Origin: a virus
Virus record (IMG/VR): IMGVR_UViG_3300050019_000176
Coordinates: 1-64,000 of that record
Length of the DNA: 64,000 nucleotides
Strand: one strand, 5' to 3'
Part shown: positions 9,465 through 15,674 of the stretch, one piece after another
How the letters are laid out: each line of letters starts with the position of its first letter
Numbering within the stretch: position 1 is the stretch's first letter
Notes under the pieces: generated by a model
Database searches by the model: none
What the model saw: the letters and a program-made list of their open reading frames with translations, nothing else
What the model was told of the DNA's origin: nothing
Translations under genes and position numbers: made by a program

Positions 9465-10004
9465 ATGATGTCAAGGACCACGAAACGTGACGAAATCCGA
9501 GCGTACATAAAGCGCACAATAGAGGAAGGCGTACTCCTTCACAGTGCCAGGATGGCAGACCGAGTAGCGGCCGAAACCATTCGCCAACGAGCTTCTGCAT
9601 TGGCTGGCGACATTTCTTGGCATGTGTGCGAGGAGTACCGCTACCTGGAACTGGCCGACATATTCGAATGGAAGCGGGAAAGGGTGCGGAGGTAGGTGAT
9701 GGACACGCAAGAGGCAATTCGGACGATCAAAGCAGCGCTGGTACATTCCAATCTGGATAATCAGCGGTGCGTGGACGCTCTTACTGCGCTGGAGGTGCTC
9801 CGGAAGGACGGGGAGCGGCTACAGACCGCGCCAGAGTGCGAGTGCCGGAAGGCGCTGGAGCAAGCACTTCAGGCGAAGCGGGAGGCGGAAGCCGAACTTA
9901 CCGCGCTTGAAAACGTCCATGCCACGGCAGAGGCCGTAATTGTCCGGCTCCGCGCCGAGGTGGAGCGGCTGACGGTCCAATTGGCCGGGTGCAGTATAGC
10001 ATAA
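9465..10004 (+). CDS. Two hypothetical genes (9465-9695; 9696-10004 coiled coil)
   Basis: Abutting ORFs with RBS-like sequences. Confidence 0.5.
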
Positions 10005-10022
10005 ACTAGCCTAAACGAAGAA

Positions 10023-10099
10023 TGGAGGGGAGCGCCGGGCTCGAACCGGCATAGTCCAATTACGTTATCTCGTTTAGAAGACGAGAACGATAGCTCCCC
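10023..10099 (-). ncRNA. Rearranged tRNA-like RNA, anticodon UCU (Arg), no conventional D arm
   Basis: GGGGAGC/GCTCCCC-T-CCA, TTCGAGC T arm, CTCGT-CTTCTAA-ACGAG anticodon arm. Confidence 0.7.
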
Positions 10100-10100
10100 G

Positions 10101-10177
10101 TGGTGGCCCTCCCCGGACTCCAACCGGGCGCCTCTCCGTTAGGACCGGAGCGCTCTATGCGGATGAGCTAGAGGGCC
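10101..10177 (-). tRNA. tRNA-Arg(CCU), atypical D and T loops
   Basis: Full cloverleaf with CCA; T loop TTGGAGT. Confidence 0.85.
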
Positions 10178-10178
10178 A

Positions 10179-10685
10179 TTACGCGAATAAGTATTTGTCC
10201 CAAAGTTTGGAGTCACCAGCCAGCAACCTGTGTTTCGCGTGAATGCTGATCTGCCGTGGTTGCTTCAATAGCGTCATTCCGGCCTCCGCCGGCGTCCTGT
10301 CCTGCTTCCGGTTATTGCACGGGAAGCAGGACGCCACTAAATTCTCCCATGTCGAGAGCCCGCGCCGCGACCGTGGAACCACATGGTCAAGCGTCAGACT
10401 TCCCGAGGGTAGGCGGGCGCCGCAGTACTGACAGGAACTGCCATCCCGCAGCAGGATTCCCTTGCGGGAGACCGCCCGGTTCTGCCGCGGGAATTTCCGG
10501 TACCTGATGAGCCGGATCACGCTGGGGATTGGGATGTCGATCTTCGCTGTGTGGACCGTGTAGGCAGACACCTCCTCTACGAGCGCCGCCCCCTTGAAGA
10601 TCAGGGTCATCGCTCGGCGGGCTGGTACGATATTGATGGATTCGTAGCTGGCATTGAGAACCAACACGAGACGGTTCAGTGACAT
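10179..10685 (-). CDS. HNH endonuclease (McrA-like)
   Basis: LVLVLNASYE ... RDGSSCQYCG..LTLDHVVPRSRRG..WENLVASCFPCNNRK. Confidence 0.9.
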   Translation of the reverse strand: MSLNRLVLVLNASYESINIVPARRAMTLIFKGAALVEEVSAYTVHTAKIDIPIPSVIRLIRYRKFPRQNRAVSRKGILLRDGSSCQYCGARLPSGSLTLDHVVPRSRRGLSTWENLVASCFPCNNRKQDRTPAEAGMTLLKQPRQISIHAKHRLLAGDSKLWDKYLFA

Positions 10686-10690
10686 AACGT

Positions 10691-10766
10691 TGGTGAGGGG
10701 CACGGGCCACGATCCCGCATCTCCCGACTTAAAGGGACGGCGCTCTGCCTATTGAGCTAACCCCTC
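10691..10766 (-). tRNA. tRNA-Lys(UUU)
   Basis: Cloverleaf with CCA; C33; T loop ATCGTGG. Confidence 0.8.
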
Positions 10767-11464
10767 AAAAGACCTCTACAGTATTCGGATTCTCCCCCGG
10801 CTGCGACTCGTTTTACGTTGGCGGTTTTCTTGGCCTCTTGCAGTTTTCTCCATTCCCGGCCGCTCCCTTTATTCCTTCCCTTGTAAGTGGGGAGCTGCAT
10901 ATCGCAGTTCCCGCAAACCAAGCGAAGGTTGGCTACGCTCCAGTTTGTAGAGTTACCGTCTATATGATCCAAGATCAACGGCACCCTCTCGCCCATCCAA
11001 GTGTCCGTTCCACACCGGGAACATTTGTTACCAGCGGTGTCCTTTAGATAACGTTTGGCCCACCCTCCCCTAGCGCTCTCGGAGCCGCCCAACACCTCGC
11101 CAGTATTGCGGATGTGATTCAGCTGTAGTATCCATCTACTGCCGTAAAAGCAGGCTGTCGAGCAGAACGGTCCTGGCCTAAACGTGTCACCACCGCAGTT
11201 CTTGCATGGGTGGCGCTTTTCTTCTAGAGACTGCCCATGCCTACGGACTCCAATATTGCGCACCGCAGCAGCGCAACTGTGATTGCAGAACGTACTCTTG
11301 CCTCTTTTCTCGTATGGAATCACTTGATCACATTTTATGCACCGTTCTGGATTGAGAGCGTACGCCACTCGTTTTTGCTGTGCAACTTCTTTGGTTTTCT
11401 GGATGCCTGCCGCCAGCCATTTGCTGATAGTGTCGGCCCTGGCCTTCGTCATTCTTCGCGGCAT
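10757..11464 (-). CDS. HNH homing endonuclease with N-terminal zinc motifs
   Basis: CSRC..LILDHIDGNSTNWSVANLRLVCGNCD; stop codon lies inside tRNA-Lys. Confidence 0.85.
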   Translation of the reverse strand: MPRRMTKARADTISKWLAAGIQKTKEVAQQKRVAYALNPERCIKCDQVIPYEKRGKSTFCNHSCAAAVRNIGVRRHGQSLEEKRHPCKNCGGDTFRPGPFCSTACFYGSRWILQLNHIRNTGEVLGGSESARGGWAKRYLKDTAGNKCSRCGTDTWMGERVPLILDHIDGNSTNWSVANLRLVCGNCDMQLPTYKGRNKGSGREWRKLQEAKKTANVKRVAAGGESEYCRGLLRG

Positions 11465-11483
11465 TCTACTATCCAGTGTAACA

Positions 11484-11559
11484 TGGTACGGGGCAGAAGG
11501 ATCGAACTTCTCTGTACCTGTTCGTAGGAGCAGCACCGTCACCAGACGATAAACCCGGC
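11484..11559 (-). tRNA. tRNA-Val(UAC), irregular
   Basis: CCA end and T arm; bulged anticodon stem with loop CCTACGA; acceptor mismatch. Confidence 0.6.
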
Positions 11560-11560
11560 A

Positions 11561-11650
11561 TGGTCCCCGGCCCAGGTGCCGACCCTGGATCTAGCTCCGA
11601 TCTGGAGAAACGGTTATAGGCCGTCTTGCGGCGCCGGCCGCCCACCGGGG
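11561..11650 (-). tRNA. tRNA-Ile(UAU) with long variable arm
   Basis: CCCCGGT/GCCGGGG-A-CCA; loop CC-TAT-AA; extra CTCC/GGAG arm. Confidence 0.75.
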
Positions 11651-12186
11651 GAAGGTTGATCCTTCAATACAATCAAGCCATCATGGATCTCTCCGTGACA
11701 GTTAGCGCATGTGAGCACGCACTTGTCTAGTTCTTTTTTTATCCGAACCCAAGATGCCGTGACTCGGCTGATCGAAAAATCCTTTTGCGATTGGTCACTG
11801 TGGTGGAACCCTAATGAGCGCAAGCACTTAGCATACCCGCAGAATTCGCACGCCCCTCCCTTGTATTCTACCGCCTTGAGCTTTAATCGCTTCCTCCACG
11901 CAGTTACCCCACGAACCGATCTAGCTTTTGGATCGGAGGATTGTCTGCTCGCCACCCGCGCGTTATGGCGGCATTGATTGCTGCAATATCGGGAGCGCCT
12001 TGTAGAGGGGGAACCGCAGACTGCGCACTTCCCTTCCGGTTTCCGTTTTGGAAACTTCTTGTTATTGTACTTGGCGGCGCATGACTTATTGCAGAACTTC
12101 TTAATCCGAACATCCCGCGCAGACTGCCCATCCATCGCCACAATCTTTCGTCGACATGATCGGCAGTAGTGTTGATTCGAAGCCAT
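11614..12186 (-). CDS. HNH homing endonuclease
   Basis: KGGACEFCGY..LGFHH..KKELDKCVLTCANCHGEIH; stop codon in the tRNA-Ile anticodon loop. Confidence 0.85.
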   Translation of the reverse strand: MASNQHYCRSCRRKIVAMDGQSARDVRIKKFCNKSCAAKYNNKKFPKRKPEGKCAVCGSPSTRRSRYCSNQCRHNARVASRQSSDPKARSVRGVTAWRKRLKLKAVEYKGGACEFCGYAKCLRSLGFHHSDQSQKDFSISRVTASWVRIKKELDKCVLTCANCHGEIHDGLIVLKDQPSPGGRPAPQDGL

Positions 12187-12209
12187 CAATAATATATTAA
12201 CACGAAAAC

Positions 12210-12298
12210 TGGCTGGCGGAAGAGGATTCGAACCTCCATGCGGGATCACTCCACGGCAGATTAACAGTCTGCTGCCTTACCAGTTAGGCGATCCGCCA
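12210..12298 (-). tRNA. tRNA-Asn(GUU) with long variable arm
   Basis: Cloverleaf with CCA; 18-nt variable region. Confidence 0.85.
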
Positions 12299-12302
12299 AT
12301 CT

Positions 12303-12378
12303 TGGTGGGTCCAGCGGGGCTCGAACCCGCACATCCCTGAGTAAGAATCAGGTACGCTGCCACTCGCGTCCTGGACCC
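12303..12378 (-). tRNA. tRNA-Lys(CUU)
   Basis: Cloverleaf with CCA. Confidence 0.9.
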
Positions 12379-12384
12379 GAAACT

Positions 12385-12459
12385 TGGTAGGGGTGACGCG
12401 AATTGAACACGCATCGAGAGATTGAAAGCCTCTCATCCTAACCATTAGACGACACCCCC
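12385..12459 (-). tRNA. tRNA-Glu(UUC)
   Basis: Cloverleaf with CCA. Confidence 0.9.
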
Positions 12460-12460
12460 A

Positions 12461-12536
12461 TGGCGTCCCCAGCCGGATTCGAACCGGCGATTTCTGGCGT
12501 GAGAAGCCAGCGTCCTTGCCGCTAGACGATGGGGAC
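12461..12536 (-). tRNA. tRNA-Glu(CUC)
   Basis: Cloverleaf with CCA. Confidence 0.9.
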
Positions 12537-12541
12537 AAACT

Positions 12542-12616
12542 TGGCGCGGTGGACGGGTAACGATCCCGCTTCGTCTCCGTAGACAGCGGAGTGCATATCC
12601 TACCTGCCCCCACCGC
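12542..12616 (-). tRNA. tRNA-Asp(GUC)
   Basis: Cloverleaf with CCA and G73; U at position 37. Confidence 0.8.
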
Positions 12617-12623
12617 GCAAACT

Positions 12624-12659
12624 TGGTCGGCCCGCCGGGATTCGAACCCGGAGGGATAC
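12624..12659 (-). pseudogene. 3' half of a split tRNA-Arg(CCG)
   Basis: CCGGG-TTCGAAT-CCCGG-CGGGCCG-A-CCA; acceptor strand pairs with CGGCCTG at 13229-13235. Confidence 0.85.
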
Positions 12660-12660
12660 T

Positions 12661-12736
12661 TGGTGATCGTGGCTGGATTCTAACCAGCGACCTCTACCTT
12701 CGGAGGGCAGTGCTCTTTACGCTGAGCTACACGATC
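12661..12736 (-). tRNA. tRNA-Arg(CCG), intact replacement copy
   Basis: Cloverleaf with CCA; T loop TTAGAAT, D loop AGCGTAAA. Confidence 0.85.
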
Positions 12737-13177
12737 AAGACCTAATACTGTAATCCATTTCCATCCACGCTCAAGAGCAGTCTTGATAGTGTGACACTTC
12801 GAACACCGAACATCACACTTGCTGATCTCTTCTTGCCGTCTGCGTTGACTCCACCCTTGCATATTCGAAACACTGGCGACCTTTTTCCCACGCACGTGAT
12901 CGAATTGAAGAACGAGCGGGTTTGATTCACCACAATCTACACACGGGTGTTCACGAAAGAACGGCACCATTTCTGCGAAGAATGCTTCCATCCACTTGTC
13001 TCTCGAACGATCCGCCTTCAAGCGGTAGTATTCTTTGTTTCTCTGGTAATGATCCTTGTTATATGCCCTGTGGCATATTTTGCAGTCATCGGATCTTATG
13101 CCGCGGGATTTGTACTTGAATGAAAACTCATCGACGTTCTGTTCTTTTCCGCAGCGACAACATGTTTTCTTAGTCAT
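12680..13177 (-). CDS. HNH homing endonuclease
   Basis: MTKKTCCRCGKE..; HPCVDCGE..LQFDHVRGKK..KCDVRCSKCH. Confidence 0.85.
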   Translation of the reverse strand: MTKKTCCRCGKEQNVDEFSFKYKSRGIRSDDCKICHRAYNKDHYQRNKEYYRLKADRSRDKWMEAFFAEMVPFFREHPCVDCGESNPLVLQFDHVRGKKVASVSNMQGWSQRRRQEEISKCDVRCSKCHTIKTALERGWKWITVLGLDRVAQRKEHCPPKVEVAG

Positions 13178-13187
13178 CCTCCGAAGT

Positions 13188-13235
13188 ATACCATCCTTCG
13201 GAGAGATGTGCCCTGTCCAGTTGAGCGACAGGCCG
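13188..13235 (-). pseudogene. 5' half of a split tRNA-Arg(CCG)
   Basis: CGGCCTG, D arm GCTC/GGGC, anticodon arm CATCT-CTCCGAA-GGATG, then truncated. Confidence 0.85.
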
Positions 13236-13239
13236 AAAA

Positions 13240-13316
13240 TGGTACGCCCGCGAGGATTCGAACCCCGGTCTGATCGTTCGTAGCGATCTATCCTTTCCGG
13301 ATTGGACGACGGGCGC
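13240..13316 (-). tRNA. tRNA-Arg(ACG)
   Basis: Cloverleaf with CCA. Confidence 0.9.
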
Positions 13317-13324
13317 GCGAAAAA

Positions 13325-13408
13325 TGGTAAGCACCCACCCAGTGATTCCGACACTGGCTCTGTACCGACTCCCGCCGGTCGAGACTCCATGCCTCCCGTG
13401 GGTGCATA
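13325..13408 (-). ncRNA. tRNA-like RNA with CCA end but a GGGA tetraloop instead of an anticodon loop
   Basis: GCACCCAC/GTGGGTGC stem, D-like and T-like arms, CCGGC-GGGA-GTCGG. Confidence 0.65.
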
Positions 13409-13416
13409 AGCATAAA

Positions 13417-13492
13417 TGGCTGGCCGCCCAGGGTACGATCCTGGAACCTCTGCGTTCAGAGCGCAGCGCGCTGCCAATTGCGCCAGCGGCCA
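13417..13492 (-). tRNA. tRNA-Gln(CUG)
   Basis: Cloverleaf with CCA. Confidence 0.9.
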
Positions 13493-13493
13493 A

Positions 13494-13567
13494 TGGCCGG
13501 GAGGGAGCGAATCGAACGCTCGAAGCTGGCTTCAAAGACCAGCGGCTTACCATTAACCTACCTCCCG
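13494..13567 (-). tRNA. tRNA-Gln(UUG)
   Basis: Cloverleaf with CCA. Confidence 0.9.
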
Positions 13568-13570
13568 AAT

Positions 13571-13644
13571 TGGGGTGACCGATCGGTTCGACCCGACAAC
13601 CTCCGGGGCCACAACCCGGCGCTCTACGTTTGAGCTACGGCCAC
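13571..13644 (-). tRNA. tRNA-His(GUG), degenerate loops
   Basis: C73 and CCA; 6-nt T loop; no encoded G-1. Confidence 0.75.
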
Positions 13645-13647
13645 ACT

Positions 13648-13722
13648 TGGTGCCGGAAGCGGCGCTCGAATCCGCGTCACTGGCTTTTCAGACCAATGCT
13701 CTACCGTCTGAGCTATTCCGGC
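13648..13722 (-). tRNA. tRNA-Phe(GAA)
   Basis: Cloverleaf with CCA. Confidence 0.9.
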
Positions 13723-13727
13723 GAAAT

Positions 13728-13807
13728 TGGTGGACCTCCAGAGAATTGAACTCTGCTGACTATCTTCCTTGCAAGGGAAGCGACCACCCCATGCAGTCTC
13801 GAGGCCC
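13728..13807 (-). tRNA. tRNA-Ala(UGC)
   Basis: G3-U70 pair, CCA. Confidence 0.9.
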
Positions 13808-13812
13808 AAAAT

Positions 13813-13885
13813 TGGTAGCGGGGGTCGGTGTTGATCCGACGCGGCTGGGTTTATGAGGCCAAGCTGTGAACCGTCTCTCCCCGCA
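13813..13885 (-). tRNA. tRNA-Met(CAU), initiator-like, degenerate
   Basis: 1-72 mismatch, CT-CAT-AA loop, weak D and anticodon stems. Confidence 0.65.
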
Positions 13886-13976
13886 ATAAATTCTGGCATA
13901 CAACCTCACGGCCCGGTATGCCGGCGGGTCGCGGCATGGACTGGAGTAGGGCTCACAGCGCCGCAGACGTCGAACT

Positions 13977-14050
13977 TGGTGCGTCCCCGAAGAGTTGAAC
14001 TTCGATTGCTCCCCTATCGAGGGAGAGTCCTGCTATTGGACGAGGGGCGC
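13977..14050 (-). tRNA. tRNA-Ile(GAU)
   Basis: Cloverleaf with CCA; loop TC-GAT-AG. Confidence 0.8.
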
Positions 14051-14051
14051 A

Positions 14052-14127
14052 TGGGGCCGGTGGCGGAACTCGAATCCGCGGATTCTTCCTTACCAAAGAA
14101 GCGGTGAACCATCCCACCTCCACCGGC
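14052..14127 (-). tRNA. tRNA-Thr(GGU)
   Basis: Cloverleaf with CCA. Confidence 0.9.
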
Positions 14128-14132
14128 GAAAC

Positions 14133-14207
14133 TGGGGCCAGATCGGAGAATCGAACTCCGGTCACAGGGATACGAATCCTGCACTCTGCCGACTGAGCTA
14201 ATCTGGC
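14133..14207 (-). tRNA. tRNA-Thr(CGU)
   Basis: Cloverleaf with CCA. Confidence 0.9.
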
Positions 14208-14208
14208 A

Positions 14209-14283
14209 TGGAGCCGGGCGCCGAACTCGAAGCGGCCTCACTGACTTACAGGGCCAGCGCATCGCCATCTATGCTTGCCCGGC
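14209..14283 (-). tRNA. tRNA-Thr(UGU)
   Basis: Cloverleaf with CCA; C33. Confidence 0.85.
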
Positions 14284-14356
14284 TGGAGCGGATGGAGGCA
14301 TCGAAGCCTCGTATCGACCTTGGCAAGGTCGCGCTCTACCATTGAGCTACACCCGC
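14284..14356 (-). tRNA. tRNA-Gly(GCC)
   Basis: Cloverleaf, U73, CCA. Confidence 0.9.
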
Positions 14357-14363
14357 AGAAACT

Positions 14364-14437
14364 TGGAGCGGACGGGGGTACTCGAAACCCCTTCTCTGGG
14401 TTGGAGGCCCAGGGCACACCCTATATACCACGCCCGC
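14364..14437 (-). tRNA. tRNA-Gly(UCC)
   Basis: Cloverleaf, U73, CCA; C33. Confidence 0.85.
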
Positions 14438-14455
14438 CTTACTGCCTACACTCTG

Positions 14456-14465
14456 TTGTCAAAGA
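14456..14465 (-). promoter_or_regulatory. boxA-like antitermination element (operon 2)
   Basis: TCTTTGACAA after the first tRNA, preceded by a GC hairpin. Confidence 0.6.
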
Positions 14466-14500
14466 CCCTGCCGCGCCTTCATGCCACTGCGCGGCGAACT

Positions 14501-14577
14501 TGGTCGGGGCGGCAAGATTCGAACTTGCGACCTTCTGGTCCCAGGCCAGACGGGTTAAACCACTTCCCTACGCCCCG
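14501..14577 (-). tRNA. tRNA-Pro(UGG), first tRNA of operon 2
   Basis: Cloverleaf with CCA; C33. Confidence 0.9.
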
Positions 14578-14612
14578 AAAATCAAAAAGGCCCGAATCTT
14601 TCGATCCGAGCC
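14578..14612 (-). terminator. Intrinsic terminator (attenuator) before tRNA operon 2
   Basis: GGCTCGGATC-GAAA-GATTCGGGCC followed by TTTTTGATTTT. Confidence 0.85.
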
Positions 14613-14641
14613 CACTGGAAAACCGGAAATCCCAAGTGGGC

Positions 14642-14734
14642 TTACGGAGCATCGCGGGCGACTGGATTCATCGCCGGTGCGATGGGTTCCGTCCCCTGCT
14701 GCTTCCTTGTGCCGAAATGGAATATGTATCTCAT
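14642..14734 (-). CDS. Leader peptide of tRNA operon 2 (MRYIFHFGTRKQQGTEPIAPAMNPVARDAP)
   Basis: ATG 10 nt after the -10 box; stop codon overlaps the antiterminator arm. Confidence 0.75.
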   Translation of the reverse strand: MRYIFHFGTRKQQGTEPIAPAMNPVARDAP

Positions 14735-14744
14735 GTACGATTTC

Positions 14745-14771
14745 AGTATATCACGGTTTCGCCGAATGCAA
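14745..14771 (-). promoter_or_regulatory. Promoter of tRNA operon 2
   Basis: TTGCAT..TGaTATACT-GAAATCGTA (extended -10). Confidence 0.75.
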
Positions 14772-14779
14772 GCACTTTT

Positions 14780-14864
14780 TGGCGGAAGATGGCCGAATCG
14801 AACGACTCCGCTTGCGCGGACCCCGGAATTCGAACCCGGTTGCCCACCATGGGCGGCATCTTCC
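14780..14864 (-). tRNA. tRNA-Ser(CGA), 8/4 structure
   Basis: 8-bp acceptor GGAAGATG/CATCTTCC, 4-bp T stem, long variable arm, G73. Confidence 0.85.
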
Positions 14865-14868
14865 GAAC

Positions 14869-14953
14869 TGGCGGAGAGCACCAGAGTCGAACTGGCACCC
14901 TTTCGGGGCTCCGGTTTTCCAGGCCGGCCGGGATCCACATCCCCGTACTCTCC
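14869..14953 (-). tRNA. tRNA-Ser(GGA), 8/4 structure
   Basis: 8-bp acceptor, CCAG/CTGG T stem. Confidence 0.85.
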
Positions 14954-14960
14954 AAACTTA

Positions 14961-15045
14961 TGGCCGCGGGCGAAGGAATCGAACCCTCATCCCGAAGGAG
15001 CGCCAGTACTCAAGACTGGTGGCGGACCATCCGCCCGCGCCCGCG
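14961..15045 (-). tRNA. tRNA-Ser(UGA), 8/4 structure
   Basis: CGCGGGCG/CGCCCGCG acceptor, 4-bp T stem. Confidence 0.85.
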
Positions 15046-15046
15046 G

Positions 15047-15120
15047 TGGAATGGGGATCGGGAATCGAACCCGACATAACAGCTTTGCAGGCTGCCCTCT
15101 AGCCGATTGAGTTTCCCCAC
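15047..15120 (-). tRNA. tRNA-Cys(GCA)
   Basis: Cloverleaf, U73, CCA. Confidence 0.85.
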
Positions 15121-15121
15121 G

Positions 15122-15192
15122 CACCCCAGCGACGATTCGAACGCCGAAAATCCGCTTTGGAGACGGACCACCTCACCATCGGTAACCGGGGC
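15122..15192 (-). tRNA. tRNA-Trp(CCA), no encoded CCA tail
   Basis: TCCGT-CTCCAAA-GCGGA, TTCGAAT T arm. Confidence 0.8.
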
Positions 15193-15197
15193 AAACT

Positions 15198-15281
15198 TGG
15201 TAGGCTCGGTGGGATTCGAACCCACAGGGGAAAACGCTCTTGAGGCGTTTGGTTGTGCCAATTCACCTTATCCACGAGCCT
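15198..15281 (-). tRNA. tRNA-Leu(CAA), short variable region
   Basis: AACGC-CTCAAGA-GCGTT, CCA; extra nucleotides before the D arm. Confidence 0.75.
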
Positions 15282-15287
15282 AAAACT

Positions 15288-15364
15288 TGGTGCGCCGCCC
15301 GAGATTCGAACTCGGAAAAGTCAGGGCCTAAACCTGATGGATTTGCCAATTTTCCTAGCGGCGC
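15288..15364 (-). tRNA. tRNA-Leu(UAG), short variable region
   Basis: Cloverleaf with CCA. Confidence 0.85.
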
Positions 15365-15370
15365 ATAACT

Positions 15371-15458
15371 TGGTGAGTGCGGATGGATTTGAACCACCGT
15401 GGCCCCGAAGGACAGAAGGGTTACAGCCTTCCCGTTTCAGCCGCTCACGCACGCACTC
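15371..15458 (-). tRNA. tRNA-Tyr(GUA)
   Basis: Class II cloverleaf with CCA. Confidence 0.9.
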
Positions 15459-15470
15459 ATTGTCAAAGAT
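15459..15470 (-). promoter_or_regulatory. boxA-like antitermination element (operon 1)
   Basis: ATCTTTGACAAT after the first tRNA. Confidence 0.6.
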
Positions 15471-15473
15471 CTT

Positions 15474-15562
15474 TGGCGGAGAGCCGGCGACTCGAACGCC
15501 GGAGTCCCGAAGGAAGCACGCGTTTAGCAGACGCGCCGGACGGCCCACTGTCCATGCTCTCC
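15474..15562 (-). tRNA. tRNA-Ser(GCU), first tRNA of operon 1
   Basis: Class II cloverleaf with CCA. Confidence 0.9.
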
Positions 15563-15575
15563 GAAACCTGGGCTC

Positions 15576-15674
15576 CTATAAACTCGACAGGGATGATAGG
15601 TGCCCGGACGGACACCACAAATACTCGGCGGAGCGCCGATAGGAAAGAAATCCGCGATTGGAATTCTTGTGCAT
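15576..15674 (-). CDS. Leader peptide of tRNA operon 1 (MHKNSNRGFLSYRRSAEYLWCPSGHLSSLSSL)
   Basis: ATG 9 nt after the -10 box; ends 13 nt before tRNA-Ser. Confidence 0.7.
   Translation of the reverse strand: MHKNSNRGFLSYRRSAEYLWCPSGHLSSLSSL

Follow-up and report, generated by a model that had tools for sequence, protein, structure and literature searches.

SegB of phages T4 and T6 is a free-standing GIY-YIG homing endonuclease encoded within a tRNA gene cluster; it recognizes a T-arm motif, cuts inside tRNA genes, and drives the inheritance of its tRNA region, and, across phages, its homologs are commonly found with tRNAs of many isotypes (PMC2330249, PMC13096335). SegB-driven amplification of tRNA-Tyr also counters Septu, a defense that cuts in the variable loop (PMC13096335). 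Here, we describe a locus of an uncultured virus that can be compared with SegB. The DNA that we analyzed (hereafter, the window) is the first 64 kb of the 75.5-kb IMG/VR record IMGVR_UViG_3300050019_000176. The element in question is an insert, composed of an HNH endonuclease open reading frame (ORF) and an intact tRNA-Arg(CCG) gene (which we designate D), that lies inside a second, resident tRNA-Arg(CCG) gene (designated R) and splits it into two parts. On sequence evidence, the insert is probably a free-standing homing endonuclease cassette that moves with a complete spare tRNA and that has entered and functionally replaced R.

Like SegB, the window nuclease is encoded among phage tRNA genes rather than in an intron, and, like SegB, it would carry neighboring tRNAs into genomes that lack it. 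The two differ in fold, GIY-YIG for SegB and HNH for the window protein, and in placement, as SegB sits between tRNA genes. It has not been described inside a tRNA gene, overlapping a tRNA, leaving gene halves and a replacement, or in bacterial chromosomes (PMC2330249, PMC13096335). The T-even HNH endonucleases MobA-E and intronless homing likewise involve a small HNH ORF, break repair, and co-conversion of flanks (PMC2790892, PMC2988022); however, MobA-E are flanked by protein genes and depend on resistant polymorphisms in the neighboring gene, while the window unit includes a whole spare copy. In fractured genes, an endonuclease gene lies between the halves of a split-intein gene (PMC2677866), so that the host gene is again in two pieces, but there the protein halves are rejoined by trans-splicing, whereas the R halves appear dead and a spare gene substitutes for them.

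Mobile group I introns in tRNA genes similarly combine endonuclease-driven invasion with a host gene that is kept functional (PMC3984707). They do so by RNA splicing and interrupt the anticodon loop, whereas the window insert has no ribozyme, breaks the variable loop, past the anticodon stem, and restores function with a second gene. Integrative elements at tRNA genes depend on an integrase, and only the 3' segment of the gene is duplicated at the attachment site. There, too, replacement tRNA sequence makes the insertion harmless, but the window insert has no integrase and supplies a whole tRNA. Literature searches on split tRNAs with HNH nucleases and on intronless homing with tRNAs returned no account of this break-and-replace layout.

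An HNH-tRNA insert splits a tRNA-Arg(CCG) gene

The locus lies within a block of 30 minus-strand tRNA genes called by ARAGORN at 10.0-15.6 kb of the window, and the sequencing runs closest to the record are peat metagenomes. The features of the locus are collected in Table 1.

Table 1. Features of the split tRNA-Arg(CCG) locus, with positions in the window
Feature	Position	Strand	Basis
R 5' part, tRNA positions 1-43 (acceptor strand, D arm, whole anticodon arm)	13192..13235	minus	Sequence, ARAGORN after excision, metagenome contigs
R 3' part (last variable-loop base, T arm, acceptor 3' strand, discriminator A, CCA)	12624..12652	minus	Sequence, orphan T-arm scan
Cassette, 539 nt, replacing 3 nt (CGA) of the R variable loop	12653..13191	minus	Joint 12652->13192 in X1 and X2 contigs
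HNH (beta-beta-alpha-Me) ORF, 165 aa	12680..13177	minus	PHROG 2255, conserved residues, AlphaFold2
D, intact tRNA-Arg(CCG), 76 nt with CCA	12661..12736	minus	ARAGORN; Rfam RF00005, 64.3 bits
Extended -10-like box TGgTATACT, ending 7 nt before the ATG; candidate leaderless HNH-tRNA promoter	13185..13193	minus	Sequence and family
Hairpin of the R anticodon arm (CATC-CTCCGAAG) and the cassette start (CTTCGGAG-GATG)	13175..13209	minus	Fold

Two separated sequences in this block, which a preliminary description of the window had taken to be parts of one tRNA-Arg(CCG) flanking an insert, do belong together: their acceptor strands pair at 7/7 positions, with one G-U pair, and ARAGORN calls a tRNA-Arg(ccg) once the insert is removed in silico. 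The 5' part has the acceptor strand CGGCCTG, the D arm GCTC/GGGC, and the anticodon arm CATCT-CTCCGAA-GGATG with anticodon CCG. The 3' part begins with the variable-loop base T (12652), which is followed by the T arm CCGGG-TTCGAAT-CCCGG (12651..12635), the acceptor strand CGGGCCG, the discriminator A, and CCA, and downstream of it comes AGTTT, the usual trailer in this array. Neither part alone was called as a tRNA by ARAGORN or Rfam; the Rfam tRNA model cannot score halves and gave T-arm look-alikes only.

We placed Logan contigs of four peat or sediment metagenomes on positions 12000-14000 of the window. A contig of X1, the peat metagenome that is the probable source sample (depth 26), joins 12652 to 13192 through 3 letters, and a contig of X2, a peat metagenome from another study (depth 4), has the same joint, again with 3 letters between, and also includes the neighboring tRNA-Asp at ~86% identity. 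These joints have 85% likeness, with 29-33 letters on the shorter side, and such joints can stem from other organisms. The reconstructed unbroken allele is a canonical 76-nt tRNA-Arg(CCG) with a 4-nt variable loop. Because the unbroken allele occurs in related arrays from the same habitat, we regard the cassette as an insertion. The insert had first been described as bounded by GTAT direct repeats; both copies are present (13191..13188 and 12659..12656), but they lie inside the 539-nt insert (13191..12653) and therefore do not represent a target-site duplication.

Since the record is a metagenome contig and repeated tRNA sequence is hard to assemble, the layout could in principle be an assembly chimera that exists in no real molecule. 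We find this hardly credible, as an independent X1 Logan contig covers 12623..13234 with zero differences, neighboring contigs overlap that contig, and other samples contain unrelated contigs with the same layout.

As had been read from the sequence at first, the insert holds an HNH gene, with a match to PHROG 2255, and a divergent intact tRNA, D, which is 64% identical to R; there is no integrase. R and D have identical anticodon loops (CTCCGAA) and differ in the anticodon stem, the variable loop, the D loop, and the T loop. The D loop of D, AGCGTAAA, is without GG, and its T loop is TTAGAAT. The Rfam score of D is the best in the array. D is also the only intact Arg-CCG tRNA in the 75.5-kb record, in whose long reading frames CGG accounts for 27% of Arg codons. 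For both of these reasons D is not redundant, which upholds the suggestion that the insert supplies a replacement for the gene that it interrupts.

Only 14 nt separate the break from the HNH ATG, and at its other end the ORF overlaps the tRNA. No intron family in Rfam matched at E <= 1 over 9500-16500, and there was no Intron_gpI match. Together, these findings leave no room for an intron, consistent with the original view of an intron-free unit. Archaea and algae have split and permuted tRNA genes, and with this precedent the halves of R might be still in use, with the insert acting as an intron or split-tRNA spacer while both parts of R, undecayed and perfectly complementary in their acceptor strands, are joined or paired as RNA. 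We consider this very improbable. In addition to there being no space for a ribozyme, the terminal 30 nt at either end of the insert showed no more pairing with each other (RNAduplex) than shuffles did in any of five loci (z -0.4 to +0.8). Furthermore, the HNH family described below is found mostly in bacteria, which are not known to have the archaeal splicing endonuclease, and the existence of an unbroken allele and a full replacement makes splicing superfluous.

The insert encodes an HNH-family nuclease

The ORF matches the PHROG 2255 "HNH endonuclease" family over residues 3-143 (E 4.8e-30). Further PHROG matches are to 3106 and 4234 (HNH) and, more weakly, to 1035 and 2633 (endonuclease VII). 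There was no match in Pfam-A at E 0.1 and none in NCBIfam, and the GIY-YIG family is absent from the Pfam and PHROG matches of the window protein. More than 230 homologs align over ~145 residues, with an N-terminal CxxC...CxxC zinc module and an invariant core of the form HPCVDCGE...FDH...CDVRCANCH. Among 42 sequences, C79, C82, D93, H94, C121, C125, and C128 are invariant, and N127 and H129 are at least 90% conserved.

AlphaFold2 gave a model with a pLDDT of 91 overall and of 52-74 in residues 140-165, which are disordered in the model. A Foldseek search returned no match at E <= 0.001; HNH enzymes (Hpy99I, Gme HNH, PacI, Cap5, Cas9 HNH, and T4 EndoVII) appeared only at E > 1. Alignments with VIA-align were weak: Z 6.3 to Hpy99I, in its N-terminal zinc part only, Z 3.4 to EndoVII, and Z 3.2 to Gme HNH. 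A sequence search of the PDB gave only zinc-finger noise. We thus call the window protein an HNH nuclease on sequence and motif grounds. It has no near relative (at most 50% identity), and the tree of the HNH proteins is poorly resolved.

The nuclease core comprises residues 1-140. The last 57 nt of the ORF lie within D, such that residues ~140-165 are encoded by the tRNA gene, and the stop codon TAG (12682..12680) falls in the T loop of D.

Expression signals at the junction

The -10-like box that precedes the HNH ORF spans the junction, with TG supplied by R and the remainder by the cassette. A Shine-Dalgarno-like GGAGG abuts the HNH ATG without spacing and is thus poorly positioned. In the family, 87/184 loci (47%) have a TAnnnT hexamer whose end lies 6-9 nt upstream of the start codon, compared to 18 (10%) in shuffles; the distances have a sharp peak at 6 nt, and TG lies two positions upstream of the hexamer in 24/91 cases. 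Shine-Dalgarno motifs, by comparison, are barely enriched in the family (37 versus 21). This spacing is probably the signature of leaderless transcripts, and it lends comparative support to a leaderless promoter for the HNH gene, as the preliminary description had guessed; yet a scan for consensus sigma-70 promoters found no -35/-10 pair at the junction. The -10-like box, the probably leaderless HNH ORF, and the overlapped tRNA make up one compact unit.

The junction is also predicted to fold. The hairpin formed by the R anticodon arm and the start of the cassette has 12 bp, involves the first 17 nt of the cassette, and covers the GGAG and ATG of the HNH gene. The fold of 13240..13160 has a predicted energy of -30 kcal/mol (z -4.67), with 0/200 shuffles as stable. 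We infer from this model that the hairpin would bury the ATG in any read-through RNA, in which case translation of the HNH protein would depend on the cassette's own promoter. Translation of T4 endonuclease genes is often restricted by RNA hairpins and late promoters, and the window hairpin over the HNH ATG echoes this control.

HNH-tRNA fusion and tRNA splitting recur across the family

Matches to the nuclease family came from more than 480 viral loci and from more than 560 each of metagenome and genome loci. We analyzed 240 loci whose HNH homologs have 35-50% identity, with 80 loci each from viruses, metagenomes, and bacterial genomes. The bacterial loci span Chloroflexota, Acidobacteriota, Planctomycetota, Patescibacteria, and Actinomycetota, and the complete genomes among them include those of Ktedonosporobacter rubrisoli and Dactylosporangium vinaceum. 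A same-strand tRNA (hereafter, the carried tRNA) lies ~20 nt past the nuclease core at 161/236 loci: 46/79 viral, 56/77 metagenome, and 59/80 bacterial-genome loci, with median distances of 17-23 nt. It is mostly an Arg or Gly tRNA and is often the sole tRNA within 5 kb. A close donor of D was not found among the carried Arg tRNAs, the best of which has 73% identity. These results indicate, from sequence comparison, that fusion of HNH gene and tRNA is a property of the family and not a side effect of location in a tRNA array.

The overlap between ORF and tRNA is likewise widespread. In 111 of 148 nonredundant loci, the ORF stop lies beyond the first base of the tRNA, at varied places, and 28 ORFs read through the entire tRNA. 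The TAG in the T loop of D, singled out in the preliminary description as the product of a T-loop change, does end the window ORF, but given this family-wide overlap it needs no special explanation.

The bacterial loci bear on a different account of the exchange of R for D, in which D escapes a host tRNA-cleaving defense that hits R, and the nuclease mainly recombines or amplifies tRNA genes. Such a swap would benefit the phage and be compatible with selfish spread. SegB-driven tRNA amplification against a variable-loop-cutting defense is a precedent (PMC13096335), D differs from R in the anticodon stem and in the variable, D, and T loops, and the unit lies in a 30-tRNA array, a kind of array thought to counter tRNA depletion. 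However, the anticodon loops of R and D are the same, no tandem amplification is present at the locus, and the family is fused to single tRNA genes in the chromosomes of Chloroflexota, Acidobacteriota, Patescibacteria, and Actinomycetota, where phage counter-defense is inapplicable. We thus consider an anti-defense swap unlikely.

We next asked how often removal of the nuclease and carried tRNA restores a tRNA at other loci. With real tRNAs masked, we removed "HNH + tRNA" in silico at 159 homologous loci; without masking, the test had ~14% false positives, chimeras of neighboring real tRNAs, and the masked test was used instead. A junction tRNA resulted at 6/159 loci, in every case with the anticodon of the carried tRNA, and in 5/6 the acceptor strands pair at 7/7 positions: Arg-ACG at L010 (= L003), Val-TAC at L087, Arg-TCG at L162 and L242, and Leu-CAA at L024. 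The sixth, Arg-TCG at L174, has 5/7 acceptor pairs and is without a clear 3' part. Mismatched control pairs had both properties in 0/316 cases. The five loci with 7/7 pairs resemble the window in being broken between the anticodon stem and the T stem, and the insert is 538-572 nt long in four homologous split loci and the window.

This recurrence also speaks to whether the window insert is passenger debris, that is, an HNH-tRNA pair put inside a tRNA gene by illegitimate recombination in the array, with the nuclease uninvolved and the unit not mobile. tRNA arrays do rearrange frequently, as in an X1 contig that joins 12594 to 13494 and is without both Arg tRNAs, and the window array contains four HNH genes. 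However, at least four other independent cases share the break position, a same-anticodon tRNA, and an insert of 538-572 nt, a combination against which the controls stand at 0/316, and the HNH-tRNA fusion is conserved across phyla. Chance debris is, on this evidence, a quite improbable origin for the locus.

Partial remnants were found at additional loci. At 12/156 loci, the DNA 37-93 nt ahead of the HNH start contains a piece similar to the first 20 nt of the carried tRNA; in each of three control regions, the count was 1/148. By eye, the bacterial loci L174, L176, L201, L221, and L234 have 5' tRNA-Arg remnants and no 3' remnant. These bacterial fragments range from 12 to ~40 nt, and some are identical to the acceptor and D arm of the carried tRNA. 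The 5'-only remnants on chromosomes suggest that conversion was one-sided or that a deletion followed. A test in which upstream DNA was joined to the 3' part of the carried tRNA was noisy, giving the same anticodon in 33/317 controls, and served only to point to loci for inspection by eye.

A model for the spread of the cassette

In the reading that we prefer, a homing cassette that carries its own replacement tRNA, the targets of the HNH nuclease would be tRNA genes of its own isotype, cut close to the variable loop or T arm. The break would be repaired from a cassette-bearing genome during co-infection, and the nuclease gene and its linked tRNA would thereby be copied in. If donor and recipient have flanks in common, the resident gene would be converted and no debris left. 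This would fit most loci, which are without debris, as simple gene conversion between homologous flanks would leave them. Where flanks are not shared, the unit would be captured at the break and two dead halves would be left, as at R. The divergent carried tRNA would escape cutting and offset the damage, making the insertion nearly neutral. The hairpin between the R arm and the cassette would silence translation from operon read-through RNA, leaving expression to the leaderless promoter.

Several observations weigh against this reading. Carried tRNAs show no excess of unusual T or D loops (TTCRA 0.91 versus 0.89), such that no resistance determinant is visible. Only ~4% of the family loci keep both halves, and the usual mode of spreading is not directly seen. 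HNH clades do cluster by tRNA type (58 changes versus ~117 in shuffles), but this clustering may reflect only the kinship of the genomes. The uninterrupted allele, which the preliminary description had proposed to look for in related phages, is present in the X1 and X2 contigs, but IMG/VR and INPHARED yielded no sister phage. In IMG/VR, neither the unbroken allele nor the R 5' half was matched in exact-pattern scans, blastn against INPHARED phages gave generic tRNA matches only, and a portal-based sister-phage search gave no match. The empty-site joints thus demonstrate a related unbroken allele and not necessarily polymorphism within this phage.

A broader proposal, which we offer tentatively as a possibility, is that the HNH family as a whole is a natural "cut-and-rescue" drive. 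Each member would cut the gene of one tRNA isotype, be fused to a resistant copy of it, and have its own leaderless promoter; a recipient may lose its resident gene and come to depend on the cassette. Such a drive would operate on phage arrays and on single-copy chromosomal tRNA genes in many phyla. The known ways in which selfish nucleases make their insertion harmless are RNA splicing (introns), protein splicing (inteins), and settling in intergenic sites. If the proposal is true, the supply of a spare for the interrupted gene would add a fourth to these, mirroring engineered cleave-and-rescue gene drives. The design could explain the exchange of tRNA genes between phages and bacteria, the divergent or odd tRNAs in arrays, and the origin of orphan tRNA halves. 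The family could also supply nucleases with tRNA-gene specificity, and the break position in split loci would predict the cut site of each enzyme.

Other features of the tRNA array

Four HNH-type ORFs lie among the tRNAs of the array. The three further ones, all on the minus strand, are at ~10688..10190 (a classical HNH), 11542..10757, and 12249..11614. The 11542..10757 ORF runs into a tRNA-Lys(ttt) with the T loop ATCGTGG, and the 12249..11614 ORF runs into an odd "tRNA-Ile(tat)" called by ARAGORN at 11650..11561, which is without an Rfam match. Just past this call and a 211-aa HNH ORF (12185..11614) lies an orphan T arm, AGAAG-TTCGATC-CTTCT (11495-11511, minus strand), followed by GCCCCGT-A-CCA to ~11483. 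A second break-and-replace event may have left this orphan arm as its 3' remnant; no matching 5' half was found.

The content of the array also varies. The X1 contig that joins 12594 to 13494 links tRNA-Asp directly to tRNA-Gln(TTG), and this variant is without both Arg tRNAs, the cassette, and tRNA-Gln(CTG). Judged from the sequence of this variant, array content is polymorphic in the habitat.

Noncanonical elbows are common among the tRNAs of this phage. Seven of the 30 array tRNAs (10101-13644) are without a TTCRA T loop, examples being Asp (GGGATCGTTACCC), Gln-CTG (AGGATCGTACCCT), His, Lys-TTT, and Arg-CCT, and some of them are also without the D-loop GG. A tRNA-like gene at 15193-15268 on the minus strand was missed by ARAGORN and has a partial Rfam match (27.8 bits). 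Its acceptor has 7/7 pairs and its anticodon loop is CTCAAGA (CAA); the variable region is short, the T arm is normal, and the 3' part is 85% identical to the R 3' remnant. A short-arm "Leu-CAA" resembling this gene is the tRNA carried by the HNH cassette at L024. Finally, the tRNA-Asn(GTT) at 12210-12298 on the minus strand is 89 nt long, with an 18-nt variable arm and an Rfam score of 56.9 bits, and a comparably long tRNA-Asn is present in the unrelated jumbo-phage locus L003 (9122-9209).

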